DNA of 64,000 nucleotides from assembly GCA_905331295.1 (NCBI GenBank), contig CAJNYD010000223.1, forward strand, positions 62,001 through 126,000. The letters run 5' to 3'. Origin of the DNA: Rotaria socialis. Its lineage: Eukaryota. Made by a program: the position numbers and the translations under genes. The stretch's first letter is position 1; every line of letters begins with the position of its first letter. Below are positions 12,527-63,987 of this stretch, one piece after another. Below the pieces are notes generated by a model. It was given only the letters and a program-made list of their open reading frames with translations, searched no databases and had not been told where the DNA came from.

Positions 12527-12849
12527 ATTTTTGCAACCCATCTACGATGTTGTTTCATTTTCTTTTGAATGTGTTCTTTTTACTAAAGTAATCATCGTGT
12601 CTAAAAAATTCAGAAAAAAAACCTTGAAATCCGTTCTATGTTATTGATTCTTCTGAAAATAGTTCATTTCATGTGCAATTCGAAGATTTTGAAGAAAAAT
12701 AAAAGTTGCTCGACAGAATAATATGTGATTACTGTTTTTTCATGAGTGACACATGGACCAGTGATTAGAAATGTCATCTGAATTAATATTAAAACAATAA
12801 AGAACAAAAAGATAAAATTAGTCCCATTGATTGGTAACAATTTGATGTA

Positions 12850-13605
12850 TCATGGTGATGTAATTTCTACCATTTTAATAATATAAAATTCATCGCCTGT
12901 ATTCAGAGAAGAATGGACTTGAAACTGTGTACCAGGTAATAGTAGAATTTCATCGTCAGTACAGTTGAATGAATGTTTACTAATATCTTTGCCTGAGCTA
13001 CATTCGATACTAAACAAAGTTCTTGTACCGGTATTGATAAAACCATGTTCATCGTCAAGCGTTTTAAATTTCTCTGTGCAACTCATGAATTTCGATAGAA
13101 CAAACACAAACTCGGCAGGATATTGCGCTAGCATATTTGCATTAACTCCTCGATGAACAGTACAACGTTTAGAGTTGATTTTTGACAATCCATCGAAAAG
13201 AAGTTTCAAATATAGAAACCACGGTTTCAGTTGTTGTTCACTGTTTGATCGCAATGCTTCATTCAGAAAGTAACGAAATGAATTTTCTCTTGCCAATGAG
13301 TTCATATTGAGAAGCATAATAGAAGCTGATTGGTCAGATGTAAGGTTATCGCCAGGTTTTCTACAATTCATCTTTGCTGTACAAACCATATCTTTAATAT
13401 CAGGAATAATATTTTGAAGTGTCAGAGTAGCATCTTCAAGAGAAACTAATGGCATATTTCTATAGCCTTGTAGTAGAGATATTGATTCTGCAGTTGTAGC
13501 ATCAAACATGGAAGACTGACTCATTGTGATGATTGGTTCAGGAGTTCGATCTGAAAATAATATCCATCGCAAAATTATTTCAGAAAAAATATTGTCCAAA
13601 AACAT
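12850..13605 (-). CDS. NAD(P)+-arginine ADP-ribosyltransferase domain protein
   Basis: PLVSLEDA, LTSDQSASI, LNEALRS, LKPWFLYLKL, and R-S-E motifs VHRGV / FMSCT / DDEILLLPG. The 5' end is uncertain: there is an acceptor near 13551 and an in-frame ATG near 13524. Confidence 0.85.
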   Translation of the reverse strand: MFLDNIFSEIILRWILFSDRTPEPIITMSQSSMFDATTAESISLLQGYRNMPLVSLEDATLTLQNIIPDIKDMVCTAKMNCRKPGDNLTSDQSASIMLLNMNSLARENSFRYFLNEALRSNSEQQLKPWFLYLKLLFDGLSKINSKRCTVHRGVNANMLAQYPAEFVFVLSKFMSCTEKFKTLDDEHGFINTGTRTLFSIECSSGKDISKHSFNCTDDEILLLPGTQFQVHSSLNTGDEFYIIKMVEITSP

Positions 13606-14640
13606 TTTTTTAATTGCTCACAAAATGGAGAAACCTTTCAATTACTTGCCGCTGCGATTCAAGCCGACGAACTTCAGATTCACGTTTGGATCAATATTTT
13701 AAAAACTATGCAATATGTTCAAAAAAAATATTTAAATTTCCAACTAGATAGAATAAGAGCATTGCTGTCACCCATGGCAACAATGTAGTTAATCGATCTA
13801 TGAAAGCCTGTAAAGGGATAATGTATGTTTTGCGCGATCGGAAATGAAGGAACTGGGAAAAAATTTCTTTAGAAGAATGTAAACAAGAAATAATAGAAAA
13901 TTTCCCCGCGGAACTGTAATACAGCCATTTATTCAATCTAAACTCGCATATAAACCCTTTAAATTTACTTCAAGCGGTAAAGTCAACATTACGCCAGTCA
14001 CACGCCATAATAATTCTCACATCCATTTATAATAAATTTTTATTCTACTTTTGCATTTTATAGTTCTTTACCAGATACTTGCAATTGATGCTTATACTTC
14101 CTTAACATTGTCAAATGTACATAGCGTTTTGAATCCAATATTCGCGTCTCTTCGTATTGACTCTTCTATTTCGAGTTAGACTATTATTTGCATACATAAA
14201 TTCATCTGATAAAGCGCTTTCATACTGCCTAGCCGGTGTCTCTTTCGTCTATTTTATTTGTTGTCGTACTCACCGTATGTTTGACATAGTAGAATGGCGG
14301 AAAGAAAAAGGTAAAAACTGCATCGTACTACGACACATTTCAATTTATATACTCATCTTACACTCTAAGGGCAACTATTTTCCGATAAATGTTTTCAAAA
14401 ACAAAACTACCTTATTCCGTAGCACTCCTATTTTTAGGCGATATTAGTTTAGGTCGATTCAAGTCGACTGGTCTTGCCTCTCACGAGGTAAATCAGTGCT
14501 CATTTCTGGTAGTGTTTCTTCTGACTGTAACAAAATATCCCACTGATAGAATAGCATAGACAAGTGGTTCATTTTTAACAATTTTCTTTTTTATCTATAA
14601 AAAATAAAGAATTATAACGAAATATAAAGTCTTCATTGAC

Positions 14641-15812: not shown

Positions 15813-18800
15813 ATGTCTAACAGAACATCAGCCACATGCAAAACTGGAGCAAACTATGAGCAAGACGATGACGGTCAGTATACACGCATCGAGTACAAGG
15901 GAAAAATCTGTCTTGCGTTTCTTTAGCATCAAACACAGATCAGCAGAAGCCGCCCTTTGTAGTACGTGATCGGTACTTTCCAACAAAGACGCCACGTCCT
16001 AGTAGAAAAGACGATATGCCATTAAATCAGTCAAGATGTTCACAACGTTCTTTAAGCAATCTTTCTCGTATTTTACCGGCAACTAATGTGGATTGTGTAA
16101 TTTCGAGAGGTAAGTGATCAAAGCTCTTCGATAATGGCAATTACTAAAAGCGCTCATCGTCAGGTAATGTGAATATAAAAAATAATCAGCGATCAAACTC
16201 ACAAACAAAACGCCCACGTTCGAATTCAAGGGTCAAGTCGTCCAAAGCTATGGGATTTAATTGTATAGGTTCCAAATCTACTATTGAGCAACTGAAAGAA
16301 AAAATCAGGGGTTTATATGACGTACGTACCAATCTCTCTAGAAAAAAGTGCAACATTTTTTCTATTTATTTTGATTGAACGCATAATTTGCCATTTTTTT
16401 TTATAGAAAGACATACCCGAAGCACGCAATAATCATGAGTTTCTCATTGTCGAACAAAACGCATTAATTGAACAGCTTGATGAAGATGATGATAGGAGAC
16501 CTATCTGTGAGGCATTGCTCAAGGAGCTCAAAGAACAATTGAATGCATTCAACGCAATTGTATCAAGTTTCTCAACATGTAACACATCGAATTTATCCGA
16601 AGTCCAACATCATTGGAATATTTTGAATCGCGAAATTACACGACTTGAACTTCATTTACCCATTTACGCGCGACATCTAGATTTGATTGATCCAAATATT
16701 TATGGGCGTGTTCTTATACTAAAAGCAGATACCGGGTCTGGCAAGAGTACACAACTAGTTCAATATTTAGCTGATGCCTTGTTGGCAACACAAGGTTTTT
16801 TTTAAGCTTTCGTCATTTTCGTGTGTTGTTTCATTTAAATTTTAGGACAAATTATTTGTACTCAACCTCGACGTTTAGCTGCACGAGCATTGGCTTCTCG
16901 AGTTGCTGAAGAGTTCGGATGTAAATTAGGCGAAGAGGTAATATATCAATTGCTAGTTGATTCCGACTTGTAAACATATGTAGTTAACAGTTGTGAACAA
17001 GTCTTAGTTTATTGGTATATGTCTAGGTTGGCCTTCATATTGGCGTTAGCCGTGCACTAGTATCAGCCCGAACTCGAATTCGCTTTGTAACTGAAGCCGT
17101 TTTATTAAATGAATATTACAATGATCCTATGTTGACAGCCTATTCGGTAGTCATAATCGATGAAGCTCACGAACGAAGAATCGATACAGATTTACTCTTA
17201 GGCGCGATGAAAATATGTTTGAAACAACGCAAAGATATTAGGGTAAGTAAATTTAAGTTATATTGTTATTCAATATGCTTTTTGTATAAATCCACCAGTG
17301 AAAATATTAAGTATAAATTAAATCAGTTTCAAATCTTAAATATAAATACTATCAGTTTTCGATTAATTCTTGATAAAAATGAAGTTTATTTCTCTCTCTG
17401 TTATTTTAAAACAAGAAATTCTAACATATGTTATAAGTTGATCATTCGGAAAGTTTTCATTGAGACACGAAAATCTCAAAATAACTACAGAGTTTTACCA
17501 CTGAAAAGCCTACAAAAACACGAAGCATCTGGTAAGGTTATTATGATACGATGAATACTTTCTCTAATAGTGTAACTACTGAAGTTTCGAGAGAAATAAA
17601 AAAATTGAAATATTTCGCGTGATTTCTTTAGTTTTAATTTGTCCAAGTAGAATTTAAAATTTAAAGACTGCTCTGAAGTTTTCTCGCCTTATACTCATGA
17701 TAAATTTGCAAAGCAAAGCATTTTCTATAGAAAGTTACTGATGCTTTTTTTCATAGTTGATCATCATGTCTGCTACTTTGGATGATAAACTATTATGCAA
17801 CTATTACAATGATGCCTGCTTCATGAATATTCCCGGGCGAACTTTTCCAATAGAAGATGAATATGCGAGTGAAGATCCTGAAGATTATGTAGATGCAGCC
17901 ATTAAAAAGACTTTTGAAATTCTTGCAAGTGAACAATCGGGAGATATTCTTGTCTTTCTCACAGGACCCGAAGAAATCTATCGTGCTATCAACCAAATCA
18001 GTTCAAATGTTAAACGCTACGGTTCGATTCTTCTCCTACCGTTGCATGGTAAATTAAATGAAGTGGAAATGGACTTAGTGTTTAAAGCATCTCCTAATAG
18101 AGAACGTAAAATCATATTTGCTACTAATGTGGCTGAAACATCCATAACTATTGATGGAATTCGTCATGTGATTGACTCTGGTATGGTCAAAGAAATGATG
18201 TGGGATCCACAAAGCAAAACGCGAGCACTAAAAGTAGGCTATACTACGCAAAGTTCTGTCATGCAACGACGTGGCCGAGCTGGACGAACTGCTATAGGAA
18301 AAGTAAGTAATTAATTCGACTAGATTTTATCTTGTTTTTATATGAAACACATGTATAAGCAAAACAAAATAGATTAATGCAGTGGAGAGCAAGGCCGATA
18401 TTCGTATCTTATGATTAGGGATGAATTATCTAGACATAGATGTTCATAAGTTGAAAATAGAATTTCATGAATACGAACATTTGTCACTCAAATATTTATC
18501 AAATGTCTGTACAATTAGTTGTAATATGGTTTTCATACTCCGTACAATTTTACGACTTGATCGTGAATTTTTCTAGAAAAGAATAACGTAAGAACTGCTG
18601 TTGCCAGCGTTTACTATTTTCATATTGAACAAACAAGAAATTTTGGAATGTATAGAATCGAAATTTATTTTTCTGTGTCCTCCCAGATCATACCAGTGCA
18701 TTTTCCTCTTGTTTCACATTTTAATCCCACAGGCATTGTGTCAACAGCTTTCTTTCAAATTATTTAGTGTTATCATTTGTACACAATCGATACTTATGAA

Positions 18801-21800
18801 TCATTGGAAGTGTGTCCTCGAGCTGAAATTCTTTGTATTCGACCTAGTATAGCTGTTCTCAAATTAAAATATCTTGGCATAGGGGATGATGTATCAGAAT
18901 TCGATTGGTTGGAGCCACCTACTAGAGAGAGTATTCAAGATGCGGTCGATAATCTGATGGCGCTGGGTGCTCTCGATCCGAAAACAAAAAAATTGACTGA
19001 AATCGGATGGACTATGGCAAAACTAGGTCTTGAGCCCATGCTTTCGGCCATGATTTTAACTGGAGAAAAATATAACTGCCTCAGTTATGTGCTAGCTCTT
19101 GCAGGTATGCTGCAAATCTCACAGAATGTGTGGTGGCGCGGTAAAGATGACGAGTCGAAACAATTGGGAGAAGAAATACGAGCCCGGTTTGCTCAAGATT
19201 TGAATATCGGCGGTGATCATATAGCATTACTTCGTCTGTATCTTGAATGGAATGCTTTGGGTGACGATAGAAGAAATAATGAAAAATGGTGTCGTGAGCA
19301 TATGATTAACGGAAAAGCAATGAGGATGGTAGATAATTTCATTCGAGAGACAGCATATCAAATGAAATGTAATTTTAAAATTGAGTTGGCCAAGCTAAAT
19401 GACGATCTAATTCAACGAATTTTGCGCTGTGTGTGTGCCGGCTTCTTTCAACAATTAGCCATAACCAATGGAAATCTTCGTGCTGGCTATAGACTGATAA
19501 ATAAGTCTAGTAAGACATTTGCACGAGTACATCGATCGTCTACACTGACATTCGTTGAAAAAACGCCAAAGTTTATAATCTATCATGATATACTTATCAT
19601 CAATGAAACTACCTATTTGACGGCACTGTGTCCAATCGATTTCGATTGGCTAGATAAGTCTTGGTTAGCCACCATGCCGCAACCGACGCTTCAAACTGTA
19701 ATCAAAAGTCACGTCTTTGAAAATCTTGGGCCAGCACTTTTGCTTTCAATTGTCGGAAAGAAATGTCAACATAGACCATGGCTTGAAGAATCGTTCAATG
19801 TACTCCTTGATCCAAACTATGAACAATCACGAATTACAATATGGGGCGAACAGAGAATGCTTGCTAATGCACAACAACATCTCGAACGAATTATAGATCA
19901 AGAACGAGGAAAACTTCGTACTGAAGTAAAAGAATATCAAATTATTGGATCGACCAGAATTTTACTGGGGGCAGGTGGTCAAACTGAACTGGTTCTGGTT
20001 AAAGACGAATATGTTAAAGTATTGCTTACTCGACTACCACCAAATGTCACTGAAAAGCAAATTGAAGAAAAATGTCTTCCGTATGGCAAAGGTAAAACTA
20101 TGAAAAACGATAAGTTCATTCAAATTTATGAGTATCGAAGAAGTAACCAAATTGTAAGCAGACATTCTTCGAGAATGTCAATCGATGAGCATTAGCTCAG
20201 TTACAAATTTAGCACATTAGCACTCTCAACAATTGTGCAGAACGCTCGTTGTCCTTTAATTAATTGTTGTCATAGGAAACTTAGAACAATTCTCTATGTC
20301 TGAATTTATTTATTTACAGTGCGAAATATTGTTATACTTCGAAGAAACCAGAGTGGAAGTCTAGCGTCGGTCACTTTTTACTCATGTGACAGTGCTCGAT
20401 CAGCAGTTACTAATTTGTCGCATCAAATATGGGATGGCAGAGAATTAAACGCGAATCCTAGCCAAAAAAATGTGTCAATTCATGCAGGAAGACAAAACTG
20501 TAAATTGAAAGTTCAATGGTTTATGACGAAATCTCAATGTTCGGCACGAGTACAATTCAGTCAACAGGAAGCAGCCTTTAAAGCTCTTGAATTCTTCGAA
20601 GAAACACGAAAATTTCGTTGTCGCATTGAACCAATTACAAGTAATCCAACAATTAAATGTTCTTGCTCATTAGCGGTGCATACGGGTAAAGGCACGATAT
20701 TTTTTCAAACTGCTGAACAAGCTCAGAAAGTAAGACGTCATAGATTTCATTCATGAAAAACTTCTAATTTCTATCTTATAAGCAAAATAAAAGGTACGAA
20801 TCAATACTCATCTGTATCTTTGATATCATTCTATTCATAGAATAAAAGATTTTTCCAAAAAAATATTATAATGCTGCATTGGAATCAGCAGCATTAGAAG
20901 TCTAGCTTAGTTCGATTCTGATCTAGCCAATTGAGATGAGACAATTTGAAATAAAAATTTTGAATCAGAAACAAATACTTACATTAATCTAAGTTGCGAC
21001 GCTGAAAACACAACATAGCAACATGATGAAACAACTAATGAATCCGTCTTCGTCTCTTCTGTTTTTTATCATAATTTATCTCACATTTCCATTCATTTTA
21101 GGTACTTAAATGTGATAATTCATCTCCGTTTCATCTCCGAAGAAATCCCAAAGATGATTTATCTCTATGGATAGAAAACGTACCGGCAAATCTGGATGAA
21201 TATGATTTAAAAAACAGTTTCATTAATATTACTGGAGTGACGTTGCAGCGAGGTTTCCGCAGAATAGCACTTGCACAACTCAGTGTAATTGAAGATGAAC
21301 TTCGTCGACTGTTCAATTCATATCGATCGTTTCAACGTGAATTAGTCGCTGTTATGCCACAATCTAAAAAGGGTGTGCTAGAAGCGTATGTTCAATTTAC
21401 TGATGAACGAGATATGCAGACCGCTATCGAGAACCTGAACAACAAGCCAAATTTAATTGGTTCAGGCAAATTGAGACTTTCAGTTTACAAATATCAGTTT
21501 CCAAAGAAGCCGACTAAAGTGGCGGATAAATCAGCATTTCTTATCAAGCTCTACCAGTTAAAAGCTGACATTGACGAAGAAGTTCTCATTCAAGATCTAA
21601 ATCAGCATCGTTTGGGTGATTACATAATAGATGTTAATGTTTTTCGCGAATCATTACCAAAATATCCATCTCGAGACGCATCAGAAACTAGGTCTGAAGA
21701 AGATGAAATTAACCTGATTAAGCTGCAATCTCTATTCAGTGATCGTAGAAAGTTTCGTTCTGCGCCGGATATTCAAATTCGTCCAGCTACAAACGACGGT

Positions 21801-23797
21801 CGCGTTGTGGCATTCGTTCTGTTTGATCATCCTAGTGATGTTATAACGGCTATGCACATGTATGAAACACCAGACGATCCTAACCTTTTGAAATTTGGCG
21901 ATTATAAAATGCGGTTAATACCAATAATTGATCATACCATTGAGCTTAATGCAGCGCTAACTCGCGCTATACCAAAACAAATTGAGCACGCCATTGAAAC
22001 GATTAAACGCGACCCGATATTATCAAACATAGCTTTAATTAAAAAGATCCCGCTAAAGAATCAACAAGAGATTACCCGAATTTCAATTAAAGGAGCCAGC
22101 ATTCAAAAAATTTATAAAGCTCGTGCCATCTTCGAAGAATTGATGAAAGGTCTAATATTCAAATTTGCAGAGCCTTCATGGGTCAGTATTCTATCATCAT
22201 CATCATCGTCGATTTTAATCCAGCTACCTTTCTCCTCCTTGCAGAAATATATAGTTGCTAGTTGTTCCCAAAAACGGAGATTTCTGTAAAAGAAGAACTC
22301 AATTAATTTACATCGATAAGATTAGTTCAGACTCTAGACATAGCTATTGTCTGCCAAAAGAATTTATCTATTGATAATAAATATGATCATAATATTTTAG
22401 GTTTCAGTTATTTTTGATGTAACGGGTAAAACGTTTCTACAGAAGGTTCAGGACCGCACCGGTACATATATTTGGTGGGACTGGAGGTCGACATTCTTGA
22501 GAATTTTCGGTAACGACCAAGCCAGTAACAAAGCCTATCAAGAGATTAATGATTACATTCACGAGACACTTGATCAAAACAAGTATTCAGTTCCTATTCG
22601 TATTCCAGAAGGTTTGTAATAAAAATAGCTGTATTATCTATCTGATACCTTAATATCCTCACTATTTAAGGTTGCATCCGTCAATCTATTGAGCAATCAA
22701 GCGAACTCCGTCGTATGGGCAATGAAGAAGTTAAAGTTACTATTGATGTATTAAAGCGTCTCATTATTATCAATGGAGATAAAAATAAAGTACTCGAATG
22801 TGAGCGAAAAATAAAAGATCGGCTTGGCAGTTATTTACCAGAATATGTTCATACTACTACTACTGCTGCTGATTTTCAACATTTGGCGATACCAACCAAT
22901 GAAGAACGTGTATGCTCTATCTGTTTATCTGGCTTCAAGTCGCCATACTACTTACAACCATGTGGGCATACGTTTTGTCGATTATGCTTACAAAATTATT
23001 TTGAAAACATTTATAACACAGATGCTTTGCATTTATGTTGCCCATTAGACACGTGCAAAGTGGAATGTGTCATTCAGGACATTGAAGCTATACTTGGCTT
23101 TGAAAAAATGTCTTGTCTAGCTAAGATTGCTTTTCAAATTTATATTGGTCGCCAAGAAAGTGATCTCAGTCAGTGTATTGGGAACAATTGTGATCAGGTA
23201 CAATGATTTTCCTCATTGAAAAATAATTTGAAATCATCCTCAACGTTGCCTAGCAAAGTAAAACCGTTTCGGATCCCATTTAGAACCACTCAACTGGTAA
23301 TCCGTAAAAATAGAGTGGCATGTAAATTTTGATGTAATAAGAAAAAAAATCCACGTTCTCAAAATTCATTACCTTTGAAATGTTTTATAAAATTAATTTT
23401 CGAAATGTATCCAATAGTATTCGAGGGTTGACAACTAGCAATTGCTGATTTTCAGAGATGTTATCAATACTAGTACGAAAAGTTCTCAGGAAAATGAAAA
23501 TGCGTGCAAAAGCAGAAAATATTACGAATATTATATTTTATTTTAGCACCCATTACATGGTCCGGAAACCTAGTTAATCTAAATTTTCTAGAAAACTATT
23601 CCTAACAGAATGTCTTCTTCTTTTTTTTTCTTCAGGTATATCGCCCATCACAATATTCCTCGAGTTATCACTGTGATCAATGTAACGAAAACTATTGCAT
23701 ACCATGTAAAGTTGAATATCATTTTGGTATGACCTGTACACAATATAAACAACCTGAGCGCGAACTAAATCAAAAATTTCTCTCGACTAACAATTGA
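15813..23797 (+). CDS. DEAH-box RNA helicase fused to RRM/KH-like domains and RING1-IBR (DEAH11/12-type helicase-RBR fusion), multi-exon
   Basis: Motifs [49 protein letters not shown]2/OB region. RRM-like segments ([22 protein letters not shown]). RING1 [53 protein letters not shown]. Stop at 23795-23797. The start at 15813 is tentative. Confidence 0.9.
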
Positions 23798-24472
23798 TTT
23801 AATTAATTTTGAAACATTATTATTAATCTCGAACATACACTTTGAAAAATAAATTGACTGAGATGCAGCTGTTGTATAATAAACTTAGTTTAGGGATACT
23901 TATTAGGACAGGCTCGGAGTAGGTTCGCGCCTGTATGTAAATGAAGGGGTGTGGGTCTGAATGAGCATTGTAAAAGAAGTCACATCCACACCAAATAGAG
24001 ATAACTCGCTAAAAAATATTTTGAAAATAATAGCATAAAATGAACCTAACGTATTTATGTTATGATTGAGAAGCTCCATTTTTTTCTGTTTTGAATTCAT
24101 TCACTTAGTTTAGAATGTGATAACATCACTTGTTCGACACAGAACGATAAAAAACAACAACATAAAAGACCGATAACAACGGAGCGATACGTGTCTTAAA
24201 TTGATAAAACTAAATTTTTAATGGATGAATTTTAAAACCACAGAAAAATTCTTTTTTTTTAATGGGGCTTATCATAAATCGAGATCTATTAATTTCTTCG
24301 TAAGTATTGGAATACAGATAAATTTAAGATATTTTTTCGTATCTATGTTATCATCTTTGTACAAATATTTGCCTTGTATCTTCTCTTTGATTCATATTAT
24401 TATAACCGTAGAGTTATCTTGTTGAAAACTGATTTTTCCTTATGTGTTTCTACTTGTAGAATAAATCTACAA

Positions 24473-27301
24473 ATGAATTTGATATTTTCTATAAGTTTTG
24501 CATTAACATTTACTTTAATTCATTGTTCTATTCCAAAGACAATTCAATCTCCTGATGAAAACCAATTTGAATTGTCGAATGAATATTTAACTGTTCAATT
24601 TAATTTAACCAATGGACAAATAACATCATTTTATTATAAATCAGAATTAATTACAATAACCAATGAAACAAGTTTCATTTTTCTCGATAATATTTCAGTT
24701 GATTGTTCAAAATTAATAAACTATAAAGAAGATATGAATTCAATTAATTTTACTTATTCTTGTTCCAATAAAACAAATTATGAATTAATAATAATCTATA
24801 CATTAAAATTCGATTGGGAATTTTTACGAAAGCAAATTTCTTTTGAAAATATAGATAATAAAAGCATAACATCCATTGAAACAACATTTACATTGACGAA
24901 TAAAATGATTTCATCTGTTTCGATTGTACAAAATAAACAAGATTTAAATAAACAACATACAGTTTTCTTACGAACGAAACTAACAACATTAGGAATATTC
25001 GCAACATGGCAACATCCATTCGGCTCCTATACTGTTACGTCAAATAATCAAACAGTAACAAGTTCATATAAAATAGGAATAAATAAATCCTATTTAAGCG
25101 AAGGATTTCTTATTGGTTTCTATCAATTATCTCCTTATTGGCATACAAATGACATTAATTATGCCGAACGACGAGCTTATGAAAACGCAACAAATTTCTT
25201 TTATCCTGTTCCACAACGTCAACAATCAATAAAACATGCCGTTGGTTGGGATAGTAATGATTATCAAATTGATATTTCAACATCACATGGCGTCGATGAA
25301 TATAAACGTCTAATTGATCGTTGTTCACAGCTTGGTATAAAAAGCTTAACATTCGCACCATCAAATACAAATGTGTCAAGTCGCCAACAATCTACTGATG
25401 ATTGGGGTTGGGAATCTATTTTATGGTTATCATTAGGTGAACAAATTCGTTTAGAACAATGGAAACCGTATCGAGATCCAATGCCTTTAACAATTCAGCA
25501 CATGCTAGATTATGCAGAATTTAAACAAGTTAAATTAGTTCCATATGTTTATCCACCGTTAGGTTATAGATCCAAAGGAAAAGATCAAGCATGGCTATTT
25601 CCAAGTTCACATTGTAAAGATGTTTGTGCATCATTAGCAAGTGTAGAATTTCAACAATATTTTCTACAATTATTAATTGATTTTGCGCAAACTACAGGTA
25701 ATGAATGTTAAATTTCAAAATTAACCGTGCAGAATCTTCTTATTTCTGATAAAATAAATATTCTGGTGTATTTTTATATAGGCATTGGTGGGTATGCATG
25801 GGATTACAATTTTTTTTATGACACTAAAAATAGCGAATATAGTCAATGGCGCGGTTGGCAGTGGATTCGCACTGAATTACTTATTGCTCTGCCTTACTTA
25901 ATTATGGATCATCGTTATGCATCTCAGTTCGATGGTCCATGGTCATGGATAACTTTAAACGGCTATACATCACCTTTATTGAGTGATGAAAATCCTGAAA
26001 CATATCCAATCTTACATCCATCGTTACACACTGATAAAATTTCTGCAGATTTTATGCGTCAAGGAAATGTTGAATTACGTTTAGAACATTTTTCATCAAT
26101 GGATAGCATTCCTGGTTTTATTGGACATCAAACAGAACGTTTAGCATCAGATGGAAGTCTACCATGGGTCGATAATAATTTGAGAGATTTTGATTTAATG
26201 GGTTTCTCCTATTCATTATTATCTAATATAGCAACAGCTGGTTTAAATCTTATTCATACATTTATACCAGCACGAGATTTAGAAGAATTTTATTTTCTAC
26301 CGGAAGAATTAATAGAATTTTGGTCTTATTGGCTGAAATGGGCAGATGAACATATAGAAGAAATTCGTAATAGTATACCATTTAATACGGAACAGGATTG
26401 GTCTTTGATGAGATCAAATGGTATTGACGGATTTTTATTTTTATTTAATCCAAATTATAAACAAATGAACCGAACGATTTTATTTGATGGAAAATTAAAT
26501 GTAAAAAATCCCCAACAACAAGGTTATTGGTTACTAAAAGAAATTTATCCACAAGAAAGATTTATACAATTCATAGAATATAATCAAACAAATCAATTTT
26601 TATTAGATGGTCAAAGTGTTACAGTGTATCAATTAATATTTATTCCAATAATTGATCAACCAATTCTTGTTGGCATTAGCGGACAAGCTTTTGTAACAAA
26701 TCAAAATACTATAATTATTAATGGAGTTTATGGCGAAGCTGGCACACAAACAAACAATCCTATGTTTATTATCTTACCAAATCAAGAACTCATATCCAAG
26801 GTTTTATTAAATGGAAAAGAACAGCGATTTCAACAAAACAATGAAATAATTTCTTTACTTGATTCTTTATCATTTCCTGGTTTATATTTGCCACGTTCAG
26901 CAGAAATTCTTAATAATACAATAATGATTAGTGATTTATTATTGCAGCAATTATCGGAACGTCAATTAGAATATCCAATTCAATGGACGGGAAAAGAATT
27001 AAATGACGCATCATGGTTAGGACCACAGCGCCTTCTATTATTTATATGTATTCAAAATCCAAACGATCAATGGAATATAACTGCTCAAGTCAATAATAAT
27101 CCAATCATTGTACACAAAGCTTATAATACACGTGATCATTATGAACAAAATCGATTTATGGGATTTTATTTAGATTTAACAAATATTGTTAAGCAATCAA
27201 ATGTTAATTATTACTTATCGTTAAATATGCCGCCTCTTAGTCCAGAACAATTTCAAGGATTATTTTTAGAAAATATTGAAAGAATTTTTGTTGAAGCATA
27301 A
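24473..27301 (+). CDS. Secreted ~915-aa protein, probably a glycoside-hydrolase-like multidomain enzyme; two exons
   Basis: Signal peptide MNLIFSISFALTFTLIHCS. One in-frame intron 25698-25781 (GTAATG...TATAG) joins the 445-aa and 524-aa ORFs (QTTG/IGGYAWDY). Beta-rich N-terminus and W/D-rich central domain (DDWGW, GYAWDY, IMDHR). The family assignment is inference. Confidence 0.7.
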
Positions 27302-30090: not shown

Positions 30091-30853
30091 TCATAAATTA
30101 GATGAAGATCTGTTGAACCTGATAGTACATCTTTGTTTTTGTTATGGAATAGTTGCATTATGCATGAAAATCGAACATTTAACATGCTAGAGGAGTTGTG
30201 CAGCACATTGTGATAATATATAGTTTTTGTTCTTGAATAATTTTACTTGAACGTCATGAATCATTGTGACATAGGTTGGTGCAGGAACGTATTGACGAAT
30301 GCATCTTTTTCGATTCTAATATTTGTATTTGAGCAGAATATATGTCTATGTGTACTCAACGATGATCTCCTGCAATTTAAAAATAATGAAAAATTCATCT
30401 GTCAGTGTTTCATAAAATTATGACAACAGTGTTTCATAAAATTATGACAACAAACCTCCCGAAGGTTTTTGAATTTTTTTTTAACTTAAAAACTCTTATT
30501 TTTCAATGGCATGCACACAATCTGTTAGCTGGGGTTGGATCCGTCCTATACTTCCTATAATTCCTATGAAAAATGAAAAATAAAGTGCACTATTGCTTAA
30601 AAAAGCTTTTCTAATCAAAGTTTTGAGGTTTTTAAACAAATCGATTCGATACCTAGTGATTCTTTCATATACTTCGAATGTTTTATAGGGACATTCTTTT
30701 AAATACAATTCCTTTTCACACTATCAAGCAGACTAAATTTTTTTTAAAAAGTGACGCTTAATTAAATAATATTCAAACAAAGTAAGATAGTCTTTACAAA
30801 TGTTTGTATGCCTTTTAGAATCTTTTATTGTTTTCTGTTACATGCACGTACGT
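30091..30853 (+). repeat. Copy 1 of a ~730-760-bp duplicated non-coding segment
   Basis: Colinear and highly similar to 42876-43600 from TCATAAATTAGATGAAG to GCACGTACGT. This copy has an extra 24-bp tandem duplication at 30403-30450. Confidence 0.92.
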
Positions 30854-30902
30854 GAGGGTGGGTGTGGGTGTGGGCGATGGGAGAAGACACACCCACACCC
30901 TC
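30854..30902 (+). repeat. Telomere-like-repeat hairpin (family member)
   Basis: GAGGGTGGGTGTGGGTGTGGG-cgatgggagaagac-ACACCCACACCCTC. Related copies at 37662-37726 (inverted) and 63943-63987. Confidence 0.75.
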
Positions 30903-31648
30903 GAGATAGCTACATGGGGACGATTGGTGTTGATTTTTATAAGTTTCCTATTCGAGAAGAGAATCGTTTTGATTGTGTATTTTGTGGAAAACTCGGATGA
31001 CGAATCATAATGTAAAAACAATAAAATTGGTGATTGTAAGTCGAGTTCTATGATGATAATTTTGAATGATTTGTGATTTCTAGTGGGATACAGCTGGTCA
31101 AGAAAAATTTCAAACTATTGCAAGTAATATCATATTGGTAATTTTTGTTTCTCCGTAGTCGAATATGTTTTCGTGTTCAGGTAGTTACTATGGAGGTGCT
31201 CATGGTATCATCATTGTTTTAGACGTAACCAATTCGGCAAGAGATTCAAATATTGTTGCTGTTTTTCATTGGTAATTTCATAGGAATGGTTTGAAAACGT
31301 CAAAATATGGTTGGGTGAAATCGATCGATATGCAAATGGAAATGTCAATACTTTTTTGGTTCGAGATAAGTGTGATTTGTCATTGGCACGACTCATTAAT
31401 CAAGCATAAGCTAAAGTATACAAAAGAAGAAGATTTAGGTAATATTGTGTATTGTTTATTAAGAGTTCGCAAGTTCATCAAGGATCTTGCATATAGAAAC
31501 ATTGGCGAAGAATTGAACTAATATTGATCAATTGTTTAAGAATGTCTTAAGTGAGATCTTACAGGACAAATCCCAGGAAAACACTCATATAGTACTTGGT
31601 GGACAAAGAAAGTCTGAGAAATCTTCAAGTGGTATTTGTTCATCATAA
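30902..31648 (+). pseudogene. Decayed single-domain Rab1-like gene
   Basis: Exon remnants SYMGTIGVDF, WDTAGQEKFQTIA, SYYGGAHGIIIVLDVTN, WFENVKIWLGEIDRYANGNV, RDKCDL, HIETLAK. Premature TAA 31407 and TGA 31514, damaged splice sites. Ends SSSGICSS*. Confidence 0.85.
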
Positions 31649-32158
31649 AAAAAACGTCATTATATTGGTCTCAAATATTTGTTTTCTATATTTCACTTCA
31701 TATGATCTTTCTTTTTTGTCATTTAAATAGAATTCTGTTCAAGCACATGAGAAATCCATTAAGTTTTCCGCCTTTAATATTGAACTAAGTTTTTGCATTA
31801 GCTGATGAATTGTATGCCTAGTTAATATTGCTTGACATCATATACCTGTATGTTTTTCTTTGCTTTCTCACAAGTGGTCGTTTTCTTGCTTTTTTTTTAT
31901 TCCGAATCGCATGACTTATTTTAAGTTTTCCTCATCACAAGCGATTGCCCTCAGAAAATGCCTTGTTCTCTACTGATCACACACAAAAACAAATCTTCAG
32001 TTTTGCAATTTACGCGCGGCTGTTTTTTGCGTTCCTTCATTTGCGGTGCATACTAACACGTAAACGTTGAGTCATAGCGTATATGACTGCGTGGCATTCG
32101 TCAAGCGACAATAAAATCAAATTGAAAATTTCTAGACAGAGTAGAATGAAGATTCCAA

Positions 32159-35100
32159 ATGGCAACTAATGACAAGTGAGTGGTTATTTCGTTTACACAC
32201 AAACTCTCTATTCATTTTAGTGACCGATATGCTCAAATGTTACTCATCGGTGATTCAGGCGTTGGTAAAACAAGCCTTTTAAAGCGCTTCACTGTTAGTC
32301 ATGTCTATTTTCTTATGAGATAATTCATAGCTTCCATTTTTTAAGCTTGATATATTCGATGAGAGTTTTCATCCAACAATTGGAGTTGAATTTGTGAGTG
32401 TCTGCTTTTATTTTGCTGATTGCCACGAGTATGAATATTTATATTGTATATTCAGACAACGAACTCTGTCACAATTAATGGAAAAACATTGAAATTACAA
32501 ATTGTAAAGAATTAAAATTTGTATTACAATAGAGAAAATTATTCAATCTAAATATTTCAGTGTGATACAGCATTTCAAGAACGATATCGAAGCATTACAA
32601 GTATTTTTTTCTGAATTCTGCGTTAACATAAAATTATTTCATATTTTCAGACGCTTACTATCGTGGCGCACAAGCTGTCATCATTGTTTTTGATGTTACG
32701 AAAGCTGTATGCAATTTAACAGATCATTTCTTCTTCTCAAGTTATTCTATTTCAGGAGTCATTCGATAATCTCAAAATGTGGTTGGAAGAACTCAATCAA
32801 CATTTAGACCAAAGTGTAAAAAAGATATTAGTCGGCAATAAATATGATTTGATCTATGACAGAGTCGTTGGTCGTGAAACAGCGCAAGTATGTGAAAGAT
32901 CATCAACGTAAATATTTCGAGCTATCTTATTTAGAAATTCGCTGATTCCTTGAATATTCCATACGTGGAAACATCAGCGAAGGGATCAATGAATGTCGAA
33001 GAAGCGTTTAACATTCTGTTGACTCAGATTATGTCGATTCCTGAAGCAGCGTCATCGGAGAAGACCGCTCAACAAGAACCAATTCTAGATACAGCAACAG
33101 ATACACCTGAATAGTAATTCGTTTTACAATAACATTATTTAACGATTATATGCATACATTTTAGCTATCATCTATTTAAAATAATTCTAGTCGGAGATTA
33201 CAATGTTGGAAAGACGTCGCTGCTGTTGCGTTTTGTCGTAGATATTTTACACTATTTGTCTATCTCAAACTATCAATGTTCTTCTTTATAGGATGAAACA
33301 TTCAATGAAAATTCCATAACAACTCTCGGCGTTGATTTTGTAAGTTTTTCTTTCGAGAAAGACAACGAAACGCAACGTTTTTCTCGAATTCCCATAGAAA
33401 TGTCGAACGATCAAATTAAACGGGAGAAAAGTCATGCTACAGATGGTAAGTATGCCTATTTCGTAGGTGTACAATCTTATTTTCTGTCTAGTGGGATACA
33501 GCTGGCGAAGAAAAATTTGGAACACTTCAAAGTAAAATTTAGTTAGAAACTTTAGTGAAATACGTTATCTTCTTTTTAGGTCGATATTATGAAGGTACTC
33601 ATGGTGTTATAGCGATCATTGATCTTACGAATGAGGTATGCTATATGAGTAATATCGTTTCACTCAATATGCCGAGTTATTTCTATAGCAATCCTTGGAG
33701 AACATTGTTAAGTGGGGTGAGGAATTCGATCGACATCGACTAGACGCTACAAGCGTTGTAATAGTTGGTAACAAATGCGATTTGACACATGAAAGAGTTA
33801 TCGCTGCTGAAACCATCCAAGTGCGTAGAAAATCGAGTGATAAATTCGCTGAATTTGTCCTATTGAGTTTGCTAGAAATTTGTTGAATCGGCTGGTGTAA
33901 AATATATAGAAACATCGGCGAAAAATTCGATTAATGTTGAACAAGTGTTTCAAGCGATTGCTACCGAAATTATGTCTACTCTTCAACAAGCAGAACCGCC
34001 ACCAGAATCTAAGCCAGTGGAAACTCCTACACCGGTCAAACAGAATTAGTAAGTCGGTTATGATAATATGATTTTTCGACTGTCATAGAGAAATATTTTA
34101 GCGACTATCTATGTAAACTAATCGTCGTGGGCGATGCTGGGGTCGGCAAGTCATCGATCCTGTCGCGCTTTGCTGTAGATATATTTCGAAATATTTTTTT
34201 CTCAAAAACTTTCGAGATTTTCAATGTAGGATAATACCTTCGATGAAAGCTACCTTGCTACGATCGGTGTTGACTTTGTAAGCTTTTTACTCTATCATGA
34301 TTTAATATATAAAATTTATGCAGAAAATTTCCAAAATCGAGCGGAATGGAATAACAATTAAACTTCAAATAGTAAGTCTATTTTGGTAATGTGAATGATA
34401 GAGTGTGTTTCTTTAGTGGGATACAGCTGGGCAAGAAAGATTTCGGACTATCATAAGTAATCATTATCGAGGTGCACAAGGTTTCATCATAGTTTATGAT
34501 GTTACAAACGCTGTAAGTCATTTGCGTTTAGTTTTGTTGCTTTTTCATTGTCTCATGCTTCTTCTTCTTCAGCAATCGTTTGAGAACATTAAAGTGTGGT
34601 TAGATTCAATCGATCGAAATGCAAATGAAAACGCAAAGAAGTTATTAGTCGGTAACAAATGTGATTTAACATCCAGCAGAGTTGTTGATCAGACCGCTGT
34701 TCAAGTATGTTGAATCACTTTAATAGAAATTCAACAAGCTGTTTTCTTAGAAATTCGCTGATTCACTACACATTCCATACGTCGAAGTATCGGCGAAGAG
34801 TTCGGCTAATATCGAGCAGGTATTTGAGATCATGGGAAATGAGTTTATGTCGACTCTTCCGCTAACTCTCGGTCAGCAATGCGAAAGTAAAACAGTTAAA
34901 AACACAGCTTCGGCTACAAATGAACCGTAAGGGATTTATCATGGCACTCACAGAATAAAACAAAACAAAGTATTTCTAGGAACTATTTGCTAAAATTGGT
35001 CATCATCGGAGATTCTGCTGTTGGCAAATCGTCGTTACTCTCACGTTATGCGGTAAATAACTTTCCATGCGTTTGTCTTCGAAGCTATTGTTATTCTATT

Positions 35101-36753
35101 TAGAATAATACCTTCAATGAAAGCTTTATTCCAACCATTGGAACTGATTTCGTACGTTTTTCGTTCGGAAATATAATCGTATGAATCATCATCTGAAATG
35201 ATTTCAGGCATGTCGTACAATACAAGTTGATGGAAAAACAACTAAAATATCCTTTGTAAATATACGTCCCCAATGAATATCATGAAGAAATGTGTGTACG
35301 ATTTTTCTAGTGGGATACGGCTGGTCAAGAACAATTTCGAACTATTACAAGTAATTTTTTTTTCATTGTCTGCAATTGAATAAGATGAATACGTTGGTTT
35401 TTCAGATAGTTACTATCGAGGAGCCGATGGCATTATCCTGATGTTTGACGTGACCGATAGAGTATGTTATTTGAACGATTACTATATTCTCTCTCTCTAT
35501 CTCACTTGATATTAAATACCTGTTATTAAGGCATCGTTTGAAAATATCAAAATGTGGTTGCAGAATATTGAGCAGCATGCATCGAATAGTGTCAAGAAGT
35601 TATTAATTGGTAACAAATGCGATTTAGTATCACGCAGAGTTATCGATCACGACGCAATTAAGGAACTCGCTGAATCGTCAGGATTATCATATATGGAAAC
35701 ATCAGTAAAGAATGCAATCAATGTTGAGCAAGCAATCAGTAGCTTTGCTTCTGAAATATTAGCGACAAAAACAAATCCATTGCCTCGACTTGTATCAACA
35801 ATAGTACAGACATCTCCTGTCAATCAAAAGTCTGAAAACAAATCTTTTGTCAGTACAAAATCGAACAACTCCGAATAGTAAGCTCATAATGAGATGATTT
35901 CTTTCTCATAGACAATATATTTTAGTGATTATTTGTTAAAAATTGTGTTGATTGGAGACTCTGGTGTAGGCAAATCTGCATTGTTGTTACGCTTTGTTGT
36001 AAATAGTTTTTAATGTAGCTCTTTTTGTATTCACCGATCGTTTTTTATCTAGGATGATACCTTCAGTGAAGCTTTTCTCACAACGATCGGAGTTGATTTT
36101 GTAAGTCTCGCTCTCGGATAGTGCGTGATTTATTCTTTAAAATTCTTGTAGAAAATTCGGACGATTGATTATCATGGGAAAAAAGTGAAATTGCAGATTG
36201 TAAGTAGATAGTCATACGGTTCTTATTTTGAATATTATTTTTTGTTTCTAGTGGGATACAGCTGGCCAAGAAAGGTTTCGAATTATTACAAGTAGTACGT
36301 TTGTTATTTCTTTAGAAGTTTTTAATTCCGTATTTCTTTCAGATGCTTATTATCGAGGTTCACATGGTTTCATCGTAGTTTATGATATTACAAGTCTTGT
36401 AAGTGATTTGAATGTAATTCCGTTTCATCGGAGATTATTCTTTTGTTCTCAAGGAATCGTTTCAAAAAATCGAAATGTGGTTCAATTTAATCAAGGAAAA
36501 TGCAAATCAAAACGCTAAAAAGCTTTTAGTCGGAAATAAGCGTGATTTGACATCGCAGAGAATTGTTGATTATGCACAAGGAAAAGTATGTAGAGTTCGA
36601 AAATATAGTTAACTTGATTATCTATGTGATGCTGTTTATCAGGAACTCGCTGACTCGTTAAACATTCCCTATGTGGAAACATCGGCGAAGGATTCGACTA
36701 ATGTCAAACAATTATTCATGGATATGATAAGTGAACTCTTACCGAGTGTATAA
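32159..36753 (+). CDS. Single gene encoding five tandem Rab1-like small GTPase domains (~950 aa, 34 exons)
   Basis: ATG 32159 and five consecutive sets of G1-G5 exons. All introns are GT-AG and preserve frame. Domains are joined by phase-2 introns 33114-33164, 34049-34101, 34927-34979 and 35878-35925. Final stop TAA 36751-36753 after ELLPSV. Confidence 0.88.
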
Positions 36754-37661: not shown

Positions 37662-37726
37662 TGAGGGTGTGGGTGCGACTCCGCATGTGTCTTCTCCCAT
37701 CACCCACACAACCACATCCACCCTCA
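37662..37726 (-). repeat. Telomere-like-repeat hairpin (family member)
   Basis: Reverse complement GAGGGTGGATGTGGTTGTGTGGGTGATGGGAGAAGACAC...CACCCACACCCTCA matches 30854-30902. Confidence 0.75.
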
Positions 37727-39654: not shown

Positions 39655-39716
39655 ATGGCTGGGTGTGGGTGTGGGTGTCATTCCTCTCTTTATCCACACC
39701 AACACCCACACCCCAT
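39655..39716. repeat. Telomere-like-repeat hairpin
   Basis: GGGTGTGGGTGTGGGTGT ... ACACCAACACCCACACCC, a near-perfect 18-bp stem. Confidence 0.7.
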
Positions 39717-52638: not shown

Positions 52639-54006
52639 TTATATGAACAGTACAAAACCATCATTTGACTGCGTCAAAACTCGAAAGTTTTGTTTCGCAT
52701 TTTCGGATAAACTGCAATGAGAAATATTGAGTGATGACAATGATTCATTCGTCTTAAGCATCCGAGCTATACAATTGATACTTCGATCCGTCACAAATTT
52801 GTTCGACGAAATATCAATCGATTCGAGAGTTTTATTATGACGTGAGAGTGCATCGGCCAAGAGTTGAACTCCTTGATCACTAATTGCATTGTTTGATAAT
52901 CTGAGAAAAATCAGTTTTGTATTGGTTTTGAGCATATTAGCAAGACATTTTGCACCTTCATCAGTAATCGCGTTCGCATTCAAGCCGAGCATTGTAAGAC
53001 TCGAGTGGTTGCAAGAAAGAATCTTTGCCAAAGCACCAACGCCTATGTCAGACACACAATTATTATCTAACCAAAGTTTCTGTAATGTAGTATTGCTTTT
53101 CAATGCTAATGCTATGGTCGACACACCCTTTGGTTTGATTATATTACGTTGTAAATGAAGCTCTGTACATCGTTTATGGGTAATGGCTTCGTTGACGACG
53201 AACTCGATGTCTTCATCCTGCAATTGATGCTCACTTAAGTCTACTTGGGAACACATCAAGCATTTCCCCAATAGATTCATCAATATTTGTTGTTGAAACG
53301 ATAATGATGCTGGTGGTTGGATCTCCTTAAGTTTTATAATATGGAGTCCATTTTTTTGATCAGAATTCGAAACAACTTTGAAATATGTACCAACAGTAAG
53401 CAAAACTTCGTCTTCTGCAGTATACATCGAATATTGTTTAATACGTTTCCCGCTATCACATTCAATAATGAATAGAGTTCGAGGACCTGATTGACCAAGA
53501 AATTTTTCAATAACATTAAGAGATAATGAACACGACGAAAATGGCCAGCATACATCAGTTTTATCTTCCATATATTCTCCACTTATATCCAGTTTGACTC
53601 CACGATAAACAGTTTGACCCACATTCGACGGAAGCTTTGAGAGAGCAACAGTGAAAAGTCTAAGATAAAGAAACCAAGGTTCTATCGCTTCTCTAGTTCC
53701 TGATCGAAGGATTTCGTTCAAACTATTGTAAAACGATGGTTGAATCGGCCCCTCCAGAGTATAAAGTTTTATTGAAGCAGCTTCATCAGAAGATAGGCTA
53801 CCTATGGAAGTCTGACAATCGGCTCTGACTATTGCAACCATGTCTTCAATATCTTGTATAACATTGATGAGAGGTACAATCGCTGCTTCAAGTGAAACCA
53901 ACGGTTTCTCTTCAAAATCTTGTATACGTTCACGTAAACTTGCTTGTGAATTCCTGACATCAGCGTATCGTTCAAGTATTTGTTCTTGGATTGCACCAGA
54001 AAGCAT
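52639..54006 (-). CDS. ADP-ribosyltransferase domain fused to RNI/NLRC3-like leucine-rich repeats, intronless
   Basis: ART motifs PLVSLEAA, ASIKLYT, VYRGV, FSSCS, EDEVLL. C-terminal 28-aa LRRs (L.L..N.I.D.G...LA..L..N..L). Confidence 0.9.
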   Translation of the reverse strand: MLSGAIQEQILERYADVRNSQASLRERIQDFEEKPLVSLEAAIVPLINVIQDIEDMVAIVRADCQTSIGSLSSDEAASIKLYTLEGPIQPSFYNSLNEILRSGTREAIEPWFLYLRLFTVALSKLPSNVGQTVYRGVKLDISGEYMEDKTDVCWPFSSCSLSLNVIEKFLGQSGPRTLFIIECDSGKRIKQYSMYTAEDEVLLTVGTYFKVVSNSDQKNGLHIIKLKEIQPPASLSFQQQILMNLLGKCLMCSQVDLSEHQLQDEDIEFVVNEAITHKRCTELHLQRNIIKPKGVSTIALALKSNTTLQKLWLDNNCVSDIGVGALAKILSCNHSSLTMLGLNANAITDEGAKCLANMLKTNTKLIFLRLSNNAISDQGVQLLADALSRHNKTLESIDISSNKFVTDRSINCIARMLKTNESLSSLNISHCSLSENAKQNFRVLTQSNDGFVLFI

Positions 54007-55675
54007 GTCAGTTTATGTTCAACTTTTAAGTTCTTAAAATAAATAAAATAAAAGTAGAAAATATATGTAGGAGATTTTCAAGCATTTATTTTATTTGTAT
54101 TGTATGAAATCTATCGATAATTGAAGTTGATAGATGACAACATTTTTACATGCGATATTTATATCTATAGCATTGTATATTTTTGCGAGCTACTTCACAA
54201 TAATTAAACATTAGACTAGACACGAACGTTGCCAGAAGAGTTTGGCAATCTTTTTTCTAAGTAGTTTTAGCTTCAGTGCAAATGTTCTATGTAATGTTAT
54301 TGGGTTTCATTAATGAATTTGGTCCAACGAGAATTTTATTACATCTAATTCGAAGTTCGAACTAGGTATGCTAAATCTTTTGAGTTAATTGTTTTACAGT
54401 TTATGATTTCCGGGTTCTATTGTTAGATATGTTTCATGAGTACAAGAGTATTGTGAAGTATTCAGTCTATAGTTTCTCTCTATAGGCTTTCTATTATTCG
54501 TGATCGTATCGATTTATTAAACACAAATACTCACTTTTTATACTTGTAAAAATGCAAGCTTTGCTATTGAAGTTTTCAAACGCTATTAAGATTCATGTAA
54601 AATAGTCATAAAAAGCATCTGGTTAATATTACGCTTATAGTGACTACTATTAAGATAATGAATAAAACAGAGATGGAGCGCGATTCTCTCAACTTTCGAC
54701 CAAAGTTCATAGAATCCTTTTTGTCATCATTCTATCGATGAGCGGTACGAATATTGAATAATCTTGTTACTGCCTTGCATGACAAACTTCTCGAGAAGAT
54801 GATCGATTAGTGTATTAATTCTTTCAAAAAAATTATTTTAATTTTAAAACAAATGATCATCAAGATTTCTTAATAGCATAATTCCAGTACTGAGTATGCA
54901 TTATAGGTTCTTTCATTAATCTCACTTATTCCTCAACTAAACTGGCTCTGTTTATTCAAAAAATATATTACTATAGATTAAGGCCTAGTAGCGTAAGAAA
55001 AAATGAATTCAAATATATATAATCTCTAAAGTAAAAATATCTTTCTTACCTCTGCAACCGAATATTGTCGTTTGATTGCAAGACTTTCTTTTCTTCTGCA
55101 GATTTTTTTCCCAGTAAATATTTGCACAGAAAATAAAAGAATCAAAGTGGTCTAAGTTTCCATCTAATGTTTTTTTTATTGATATGTTCGTTCTGTAAAA
55201 ATATGAGTAATACAACGAACTCTTTTTTTCTTATGAATATATGTGCACTTTGAAATGTCCAAGTTAATTAATCGACTAAATCTATAATTATTACTAGAAA
55301 GAAGAAACAGAACTTGACATTTCATTTTTTTAATTAAATAACAACTGGGTAAAAGAAACATTACCAATTTGTCGAACGACAGAAAATTGGCGTATGCACT
55401 TCCTTTTCCCTTCTGGCAACACTGCAATACGTGTAAATAGTATTATTTCGTTTTGTTGCATTGAAAAGAATATCTTGCCAACAAACATCAAGAATTAATA
55501 ATGCTGAGAGAAAACAGCATTGAACAACTGTTTTATAGATTATCGAATAATATTCAATACGGTATTTATTGCTTGATTTTGATCGTACTTAAACAAATTT
55601 CAGTGTTGGATTGCTTGTTATGAGCGAGGGGGTGAAAGCGAAGTAGAAAGAAGCATCAATTTAGAGTTAATTGGT

Positions 55676-63785: not shown

Positions 63786-63942
63786 AGAGGCACATAATTT
63801 TTTCACGATTAGGGATGCACCAAATCTTGATTAAGATTTGGATTCGGGAGCAAACCCTTGGTATTTGAACTCGGATTTGGATTTGTAGCCTAGATTTGAA
63901 ACTTAATTTAGATTAGTGCCTGATATTTGAAGGGGTGTGGCT

Positions 63943-63987
63943 GAGGGTGTGGGTATGGGGAAAGAGAAGACGGGCACCCACACCCTC
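63943..63987 (+). repeat. Telomere-like-repeat hairpin (family member)
   Basis: GAGGGTGTGGGT-atggggaaagagaagacgggc-ACCCACACCCTC, a perfect 12-bp stem with the shared GAGAAGAC loop motif. Confidence 0.75.

Follow-up and report, generated by a model that had tools for sequence, protein, structure and literature searches.

Few eukaryotic proteins are as conserved as Rab1, which acts as a lone switch anchored by lipid, and a locus of the bdelloid rotifer Rotaria socialis raises the question of whether both of these rules can be broken at once. The window analysed here, a stretch of 64,000 nucleotides (nt) of assembly GCA_905331295.1 (contig CAJNYD010000223.1, positions 62,001 to 126,000, forward strand), contains at 32159..36753 five successive Rab1-like GTPase domains (G-domains), which an earlier reading of the letters alone (hereafter the original prediction) had described as one polypeptide, and which we call penta-Rab. 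It breaks both rules, in that five fast-evolving, anchorless domains are held in one frame in a genus about 29 million years (My) old, and it offers a natural test of two matters, how multivalency affects a GTPase switch and whether a trafficking protein under heavy attack is used by hosts as raw material for decoys.

Splicing by coordinates from the ATG at 32159 to the stop at 36753 gave 951 stop-free codons in 34 exons, and all 33 introns begin with GT, end with AG and are short (45-69 nt, mean 52.7). The 34 micro-exons, canonical splice sites and single frame of ~950 amino acids (aa) with five G-domains that had been described were thus recovered, with the five G1 motifs exactly as first given. 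Moreover, a profile built in this analysis found five full Rab-type domains on the 951-aa window model, and the Pfam family PF00071, from which five hits had been expected, gave five Ras stretches when run on the R. magnacalcarata model P0007. The parts of the gene are listed below, D1 to D5 being the domains and L026 the sole bdelloid-type array among 76 metagenome loci.

32159..36753, + strand: penta-Rab gene, 34 coding exons, 951 aa, five G-domains of apparent Rab1 descent, no C-terminal Cys
32159..32175, + strand: single ATG exon, 17 nt, where the models of R. magnacalcarata and R. sordida also begin
32176-32220, + strand: intron 1, phase 2, following the ATG exon
32221..33113, + strand: unit 1, D1 and a 27-aa linker, 7 exons, with G3 Gly>Phe and triad Trp>Cys
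33114..33164, + strand: junction intron 1, 51 nt, phase 2, without an in-frame ATG
33165..34048, + strand: unit 2, D2 and a 25-aa linker, 7 exons, with catalytic Gln>Glu
34049..34101, + strand: junction intron 2, 53 nt, phase 2
34102..34926, + strand: unit 3, D3 and a 26-aa linker, 6 exons, near canonical, with triad Tyr>His
34927..34979, + strand: junction intron 3, 53 nt, phase 2, with one AATAAA at 34954
34980..35877, + strand: unit 4, D4 and the longest linker (~37-38 aa), 6 exons, with G5 Ala>Val
35878..35925, + strand: junction intron 4, 48 nt, phase 2, conserved at L026 692-748
35926..36753, + strand: unit 5, D5, 7 exons, the most Rab1-like, with the stop directly after helix 5

The same series of exon sizes (73/48/48/40/56/132/last) recurs in all five units. 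One intron has been precisely lost in unit 3, leaving the fused exon 34417-34512 (96 = 40+56), and the last intron has been precisely lost in unit 4 (exon 35531-35877, 347 = 132+215), where it is still present in L026. Such regularity of exon sizes and phases rules out chance as the explanation of the five-unit frame. The junction introns had been described as 48-53 nt long, in phase 2 and matching the first intron, and so they are (51, 53, 53 and 48 nt, with intron 1 also in phase 2). Two donors 3 nt apart, at 36292 and 36295, give rise to models of 951 and 952 aa, the extra residue lying in switch II of D5, and both forms are found among the public models of R. socialis and R. magnacalcarata alike. 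If RNA hints shaped the output of the gene predictor, this donor pair would be an indirect sign of expression.

Is this frame read as one polypeptide, or could it be five separate Rab genes, packed closely together or joined in a trans-spliced operon, and fused into one model by a prediction artefact? Predictors often merge tandem genes, and many two-domain matches in the databases may be such fusions; rotifers do trans-splice; every one of the four junctions, if left unspliced, runs into an immediate stop; and junction intron 3 contains one AATAAA, which is about what chance would give at the local AT content. However, no in-frame ATG lies within or shortly after any junction, the first Met after each being at residues 251, 548, 661 and 879, always beyond the P-loop, and the 23-nt spliced leader of rotifers, having no ATG (PMC3795323, Table 1), provides none either; D2 to D5 thus do not have the start codon of their own after the acceptor that each downstream cistron of an operon should carry. 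At three of the four junctions the stop is simply what results from a Tyr codon split by the phase-2 donor. Furthermore, the donor, acceptor and phase of the junction shared with L026 are conserved at a synonymous divergence (dS) of 0.72, and none of the five products would end in Cys. We therefore regard five separate genes as very unlikely. The genomic evidence makes it highly probable that all four junctions are spliced into one mRNA. The earlier claim that these are not five genes in this way finds good support in the comparative evidence of starts, leader and L026, while the junction-spanning RNA that would bear on it directly was not obtained: the RNA contigs (one run, 11 partial records, those listed being mostly short pieces of canonical Rab1-like transcripts) contain no joint at any junction and are evidence neither way.

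One consideration weighs against a single product, namely that with a stop at each unspliced junction and no junction-spanning transcript, shorter products are possible. They would be expected if penta-Rab were a polyprotein in the manner of polyubiquitin, from which linker cleavage or retained junction introns release shorter, soluble Rab-like units. The linkers are rich in P/T/S/E, of low predicted confidence and likely disordered, and share a similar short end motif, and intron retention would yield a clean stop. On the other hand, the domains are only 41-58% identical in pairwise comparison and are not homogenised like polyubiquitin units, no cleavage motif evidently shared by the four linkers was seen, and the freed units would still have no anchor; a polyprotein is thus decidedly improbable.

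If the array is one gene, is it maintained? The longest exon matched 5 of 178 candidates, all from Rotaria, one of them an NCBI protein labelled Rotaria socialis with 100% identity. The cluster of this protein has 28 members, 15 of which were listed. The seven listed models of R. magnacalcarata, 951 or 952 aa in length, share the Met start of the window model and align without gaps to the 951-aa model with 906-913 of 951 residues identical (~95%). The models of R. sordida (P0003, P0139, P0155) and of the Silwood isolates (P0147, P0148, P0156, P0185) are gappy, and their starts, linkers or ends match penta-Rab. The original prediction, which was right in taking the source to be a bdelloid, had proposed a search for orthologues in other bdelloids, and these are present in R. 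magnacalcarata, R. sordida and the Silwood isolates besides R. socialis, and the five-domain gene is intact in the three named species. The age of the genus has been estimated at ~29 My and the split of R. socialis and R. magnacalcarata at ~6.9 My, both approximate (PMC4632278). The gene models of these three species were built by RNA-seq-guided BRAKER (PMC7943196), and we assume that the listed models derive from that set. As a gene structure, the public models of R. socialis (979-992 aa) were set aside, because they include pseudogene exons and omit the P-loop of D2. R. socialis also retains a normal single-domain Rab1 (P0212), 153 of whose 166 residues are identical to those of lizard Rab1B.

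L026, which comes from another bdelloid-type genome, comprises the end of one domain, a long linker and a last domain, and is taken as an orthologue of penta-Rab on the basis of this linker and of position. Its exon sizes equal those of the window, and the D4-D5 junction intron has the same position and phase. Over 909 coding nt there is no indel, while all eight shared introns differ in length; the ratio of nonsynonymous to synonymous divergence (dN/dS) is 0.39 at dS 0.72 (bootstrap 0.28-0.54, 302 codons). For the parts corresponding to D4 and D5, where a ratio near 1 together with absent expression had been named in advance as a sign against the gene, it is 0.38 and 0.35. In addition, the substitutions between R. 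socialis and R. magnacalcarata concentrate in variable columns (p 0.006-0.02). These codon comparisons show penta-Rab to be evidently under purifying selection, although the linker, with a dN/dS of 0.57 (0.21-1.35, 37 codons), is not distinct from 1 and counts on the other side. Two trees were computed, a quick one of 97 rows and a careful one of 37 rows, from which long branches, most of the partial domains and the duplicates of R. magnacalcarata were left out. The last domain of L026 pairs with the last domain of R. sordida (98/92), the placement of R. socialis D5 being unresolved, and its first half-domain falls outside the D4 group in the quick tree.

The same data bear on the possibility that penta-Rab is a dispensable duplication product, weakly constrained and slowly decaying. 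The G3 lesions in D1 and D2, the long branches of the socialis/magnacalcarata line and an adjoining pseudogene would all be expected of such a product. It is, however, largely refuted by the dN/dS of 0.39 with an upper bound of 0.54 and by 302 codons without indel or stop; the intact gene in three named species whose common ancestor lived ~29 My ago (PMC4632278) and the existence of two-domain relatives in Adineta speak against it too. Decay is most improbable.

What kind of protein would this gene encode? The five G-domains announced by the original prediction are complete in fold, but not all of them are canonical, as D1 to D4 carry motif changes. G3 Gly>Phe and triad Trp>Cys are found in D1; D2, with the catalytic Gln replaced by Glu, is the most diverged (53 of 84 conserved columns retained); D3 is near canonical except for triad Tyr>His; D4 has G5 Ala>Val; and D5 is closest to Rab1, sharing 107 of 165 residues with the species' own Rab1. 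In R. sordida, D1, D2 and D4 carry lesions unlike those of R. socialis. Across the five domains, 16-20 of 21 nucleotide-site residues are shared with the own Rab1, the RabF1-F5 motifs are recognisable in all five, and the F/W/Y triad is intact in D2, D4 and D5. The switch surfaces match Rab1 at 16-23 of 30 positions (lizard Rab1B 30/30, Rab8 22/30). The linkers are present as described, though their length is ~25-38 aa instead of 20-35 aa. In the best sequence matches in the PDB (top 60), Rab1A/B came first, and a fold search returned single Rabs throughout its top 50, again led by Rab1. AlphaFold, run with a 41-row alignment, gave five G-domain folds, mostly with a predicted local distance difference test score (pLDDT) of 70-90, with linkers below 50 and a predicted template modelling score (pTM) of 0.31. 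The chain is thus predicted to be a flexible string of beads with no fixed packing, in a model whose alignment may miss inter-domain contacts.

Two hallmarks of Rabs are absent from penta-Rab, namely a single G-domain per chain and a C-terminal Cys prenylation motif. The stop follows directly after helix 5, without a hypervariable tail or a Cys, in the window, L026 and R. sordida. Prenylation of Rabs requires a C-terminal Cys in one of a list of motifs (PMC5902227), so that geranylgeranylation of penta-Rab is impossible, and the absence of the site speaks against its being a membrane tether as ordinary Rabs are. Our verdict, as far as the protein can be judged from its residues, is that penta-Rab would behave as Rab domains minus the Rab anchor.

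How could such an array have arisen? The plant Rab1 loci L041, L044, L045 and L052 carry a phase-2 acceptor ahead of the first strand just as the array does, followed by a 73-nt exon and then 48-nt exons, and because these genes share acceptor, phase and exon sizes with the array, the junction intron can be read as the ancestral first intron of Rab1. A tandem duplication of Rab1 would have joined one copy by its last exon to the first coding exon of the copy behind it, and each linker would most simply be the tail of the leading copy. A unit flanked by phase-2 introns could then re-duplicate in frame to give the two-, three- and five-domain arrays of bdelloids, and such a phase-2-bounded module would explain the growth of Rab arrays. 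Adineta ricciae, R. sordida and R. magnacalcarata have two-domain array proteins, and an A. steineri model reaches one and a half domains; R. magnacalcarata has three-domain models as well, and the five-domain form occurs in Rotaria. A single Cys closes the tail of most of the two- and three-domain forms; the five-domain form appears to have lost this tail, to judge from its absence in three lineages (window, L026 and R. sordida).

The best PDB matches and the intron pattern point to descent from Rab1. In the quick tree the array domains lie inside the Rab1/Rab35 group (98 in the Shimodaira-Hasegawa-like approximate likelihood ratio test, SH-aLRT). In the careful tree, whose base is unresolved, modest support (81/88) unites the 19 bdelloid array domains. 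Domains of the same position form clades across species for D1 (99/98, with R. sordida and Silwood2), D2 (92/96) and D4 (100/98, with R. sordida), and there is no resolved positional clade for D3 and D5 in the careful tree. Terminal branches of the five domains measure 0.28-0.52, against 0.02 for the own Rab1.

What, then, might penta-Rab do? Purifying selection implies that the protein does something, and fast evolution together with copy turnover implies that this is not ordinary Rab1 traffic. The original prediction had suggested as candidate roles a scaffold or tether, a sink for GEFs, GAPs or effectors, and a decoy for pathogen effectors aimed at Rab1. We tentatively propose, as the most probable of the readings though somewhat less likely than not, that it may act as a soluble, flexible, multivalent bait sequestering proteins, in the likeliest case microbial ones, that recognise Rab1-type switch surfaces. 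D3 to D5 would bind and turn over GTP, D1 and D2 would be slow or locked, and no domain would be lipid-anchored or cycled by a GDP dissociation inhibitor (GDI); the five diversified switch surfaces would confer avidity, and the chain would compete for enzymes, regulators or effectors directed at Rab1. Given the protein, this mechanism as a whole comes close to an even chance without reaching it. Three R. magnacalcarata models have 37 differences in common, of which 30 lie in domains, 6 of the 30 falling at switch II residues 73-77 (Rab1B numbering; p 0.034 for the named region, and 0.017 in a scan at width 5). The most eroded of the normally conserved columns (20 array domains) include 72, 38 and 46-49 of the partner-binding face. 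Bacterial enzymes modify the switch II Tyr of Rab1 and the adjacent Ser (PMC5902227), and Y77 is named in a PDB title. Taken together, the switch II changes, the eroded partner-binding face and the bacterial modification site favour the bait. Long branches, copy numbers of two, three and five plus a pseudogene, and the switch II changes hint at a conflict-like mode of evolution.

Several points weigh against a bait. The switch II signal is weak, the scan giving p 0.17, 0.08 and 0.76 at widths 3, 7 and 14; the modified Ser of switch II is retained in only one of the five domains (D4); and a faithful decoy would be expected to retain the target residues, whereas switch identity is about at the distance of Rab8. 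The long branches and the dN/dS of 0.39 also fit relaxed constraint. Moreover, the positional conservation of D1, D2 and D4 equally fits a scaffold with fixed roles. As a housekeeping multivalent scaffold, penta-Rab would bind an endogenous partner of its own at each position and be recruited to membranes through these partners, cross-linking them. Domains that have diverged so far from one another and still form cross-species positional clades at D1, D2 and D4, the retained nucleotide-binding residues and the purifying selection on the coding frame all speak for such a role. Trafficking Rabs, however, are extremely conserved, while the domains of penta-Rab evolve fast and vary in copy number; the G3 lesions differ among species; and no positional clade is resolved for D3 or D5. 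A scaffold is rather unlikely, though it comes next in rank after the bait.

The surroundings of the gene include a further Rab1 remnant:

30900..31650, + strand: Rab1 pseudogene, 5'-truncated and stop-containing, with a canonical-type tail, ~500 nt upstream of the array

It is possibly a relic of the parent gene, and it is a piece of this pseudogene that the public R. socialis models wrongly splice onto the start of penta-Rab. A 41-nt GT-rich element, 90% identical between inverted copies at 30853-30891 and 37686-37726, flanks the pseudogene and the array, with shorter matches at 39660 and 63941-63987; located at the point where the pseudogene is cut off, it is perhaps a small mobile element. 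Elsewhere in the window, coding stretches for TPR, NHL-repeat, ADP-ribosyltransferase and ART-LRR proteins occur at 8366-13617 and 52639-54012, and these neighbours were given no weight as evidence. At 16407-23206 (+), pieces of a DEAH-type helicase (HA2, OB fold) precede RRM and RING stretches, and all of these may belong to a single gene for a helicase-E3 ligase. No Pfam match was found for two long frames at 24293-27301.

How does penta-Rab compare with known systems? Several G-domains per chain are found in Miro and GIMAP8, and likewise in EngA/Der and in p190RhoGAP with its pseudoGTPase domains; these are not Rab arrays and have two or three G-domains, together with other domains or membrane anchors. 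In EhRabX3 of Entamoeba histolytica two domains pack and regulate each other, whereas penta-Rab is modelled without fixed packing (pTM 0.31). Rab1/Ypt1 itself (RAB1A, RAB1B; PF00071) resembles penta-Rab in sequence and fold, in the 107 of 165 residues shared with D5 and in intron pattern, and differs from it in that penta-Rab has five domains, no hypervariable tail or Cys, diverged switches and fast evolution. EhRabX3 is similar in its tandem Rab-type G-domains with non-canonical G motifs (PDB 5C1T; PMC8514894), but it is a two-domain orphan Rab of a protist, which that source describes as without G2, and it is absent from the top 60 sequence and top 50 fold matches of penta-Rab. The Arl13Triple of Euglena gracilis is also a tandemly triplicated, divergent small-GTPase domain that exists beside a normal single-domain gene; it belongs, however, to the Arf family and is a protist protein of three domains, and a further comparison is the Rab+Arf protein of the protist Malawimonas (both bioRxiv 10.1101/2020.10.31.363457). 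A paper on "three Rab domains" (PMC4728774) was rejected as a precedent, the wording concerned referring to motifs, not domains.

The nearest relatives are the two- and three-domain bdelloid arrays (P0141, P0143, P0157, P0138), which have short polar linkers and group with the penta-Rab domains, but retain the tail ending in one Cys. Short polar linkers are also found in non-bdelloid arrays of eight (P0021), seven (P0022), three (P0032, Stentor; P0029, Solemya) and four domains (P0027, Tulasnella). Their domains fall elsewhere in the tree, with a single clade of all arrays not rejected (approximately unbiased test, p-AU 0.204), and from their taxonomic spread we infer an independent origin. 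A profile scan of 392 proteins found two full domains in 68, three in 13, four in 1, five in 15, seven in 1 and eight in 1, numbers that are not a census, as the proteins were drawn from score-ranked searches and prediction errors may account for many of the two-domain entries; all 15 five-domain entries are the Rotaria gene, the window model included. All multi-Rab arrays in the databases are predicted proteins. The full Rab-type domains number 8, 7, 3 and 4 in P0021, P0022, P0256 and P0259; the sampled domains of P0021 group with Stentor (99/93), and P0021 and P0022 are each present twice at equal length. At L073 5578-10330 (LNAP01003074.1), four Rab-like units lie on one strand within ~5 kb, as separate genes or a fused array.

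In the open-access literature, subscription journals and supplements being outside its scope, we found no bdelloid multi-Rab and no Rab array of at least four domains; the original statement that no example had been described therefore holds for a five-Rab array, while EhRabX3, Arl13Triple and the database arrays lower its novelty. The arrays of three to eight domains elsewhere hint at a class that Rab surveys may have dismissed as gene-model errors. It seems unlikely, though worth stating, that two broader propositions hold together, namely that poly-Rab chains, with 2 to 8 Rab domains in bdelloids, ciliate-like protists, a bivalve and fungi, are an unrecognised and repeatedly evolved eukaryotic class and that penta-Rab is an anchorless decoy array shielding Rab1 traffic from microbial Rab-attacking enzymes. 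Compared with the systems above, the five-domain Rab1 array is a real and conserved, apparently undescribed variant among the rare tandem small GTPases.

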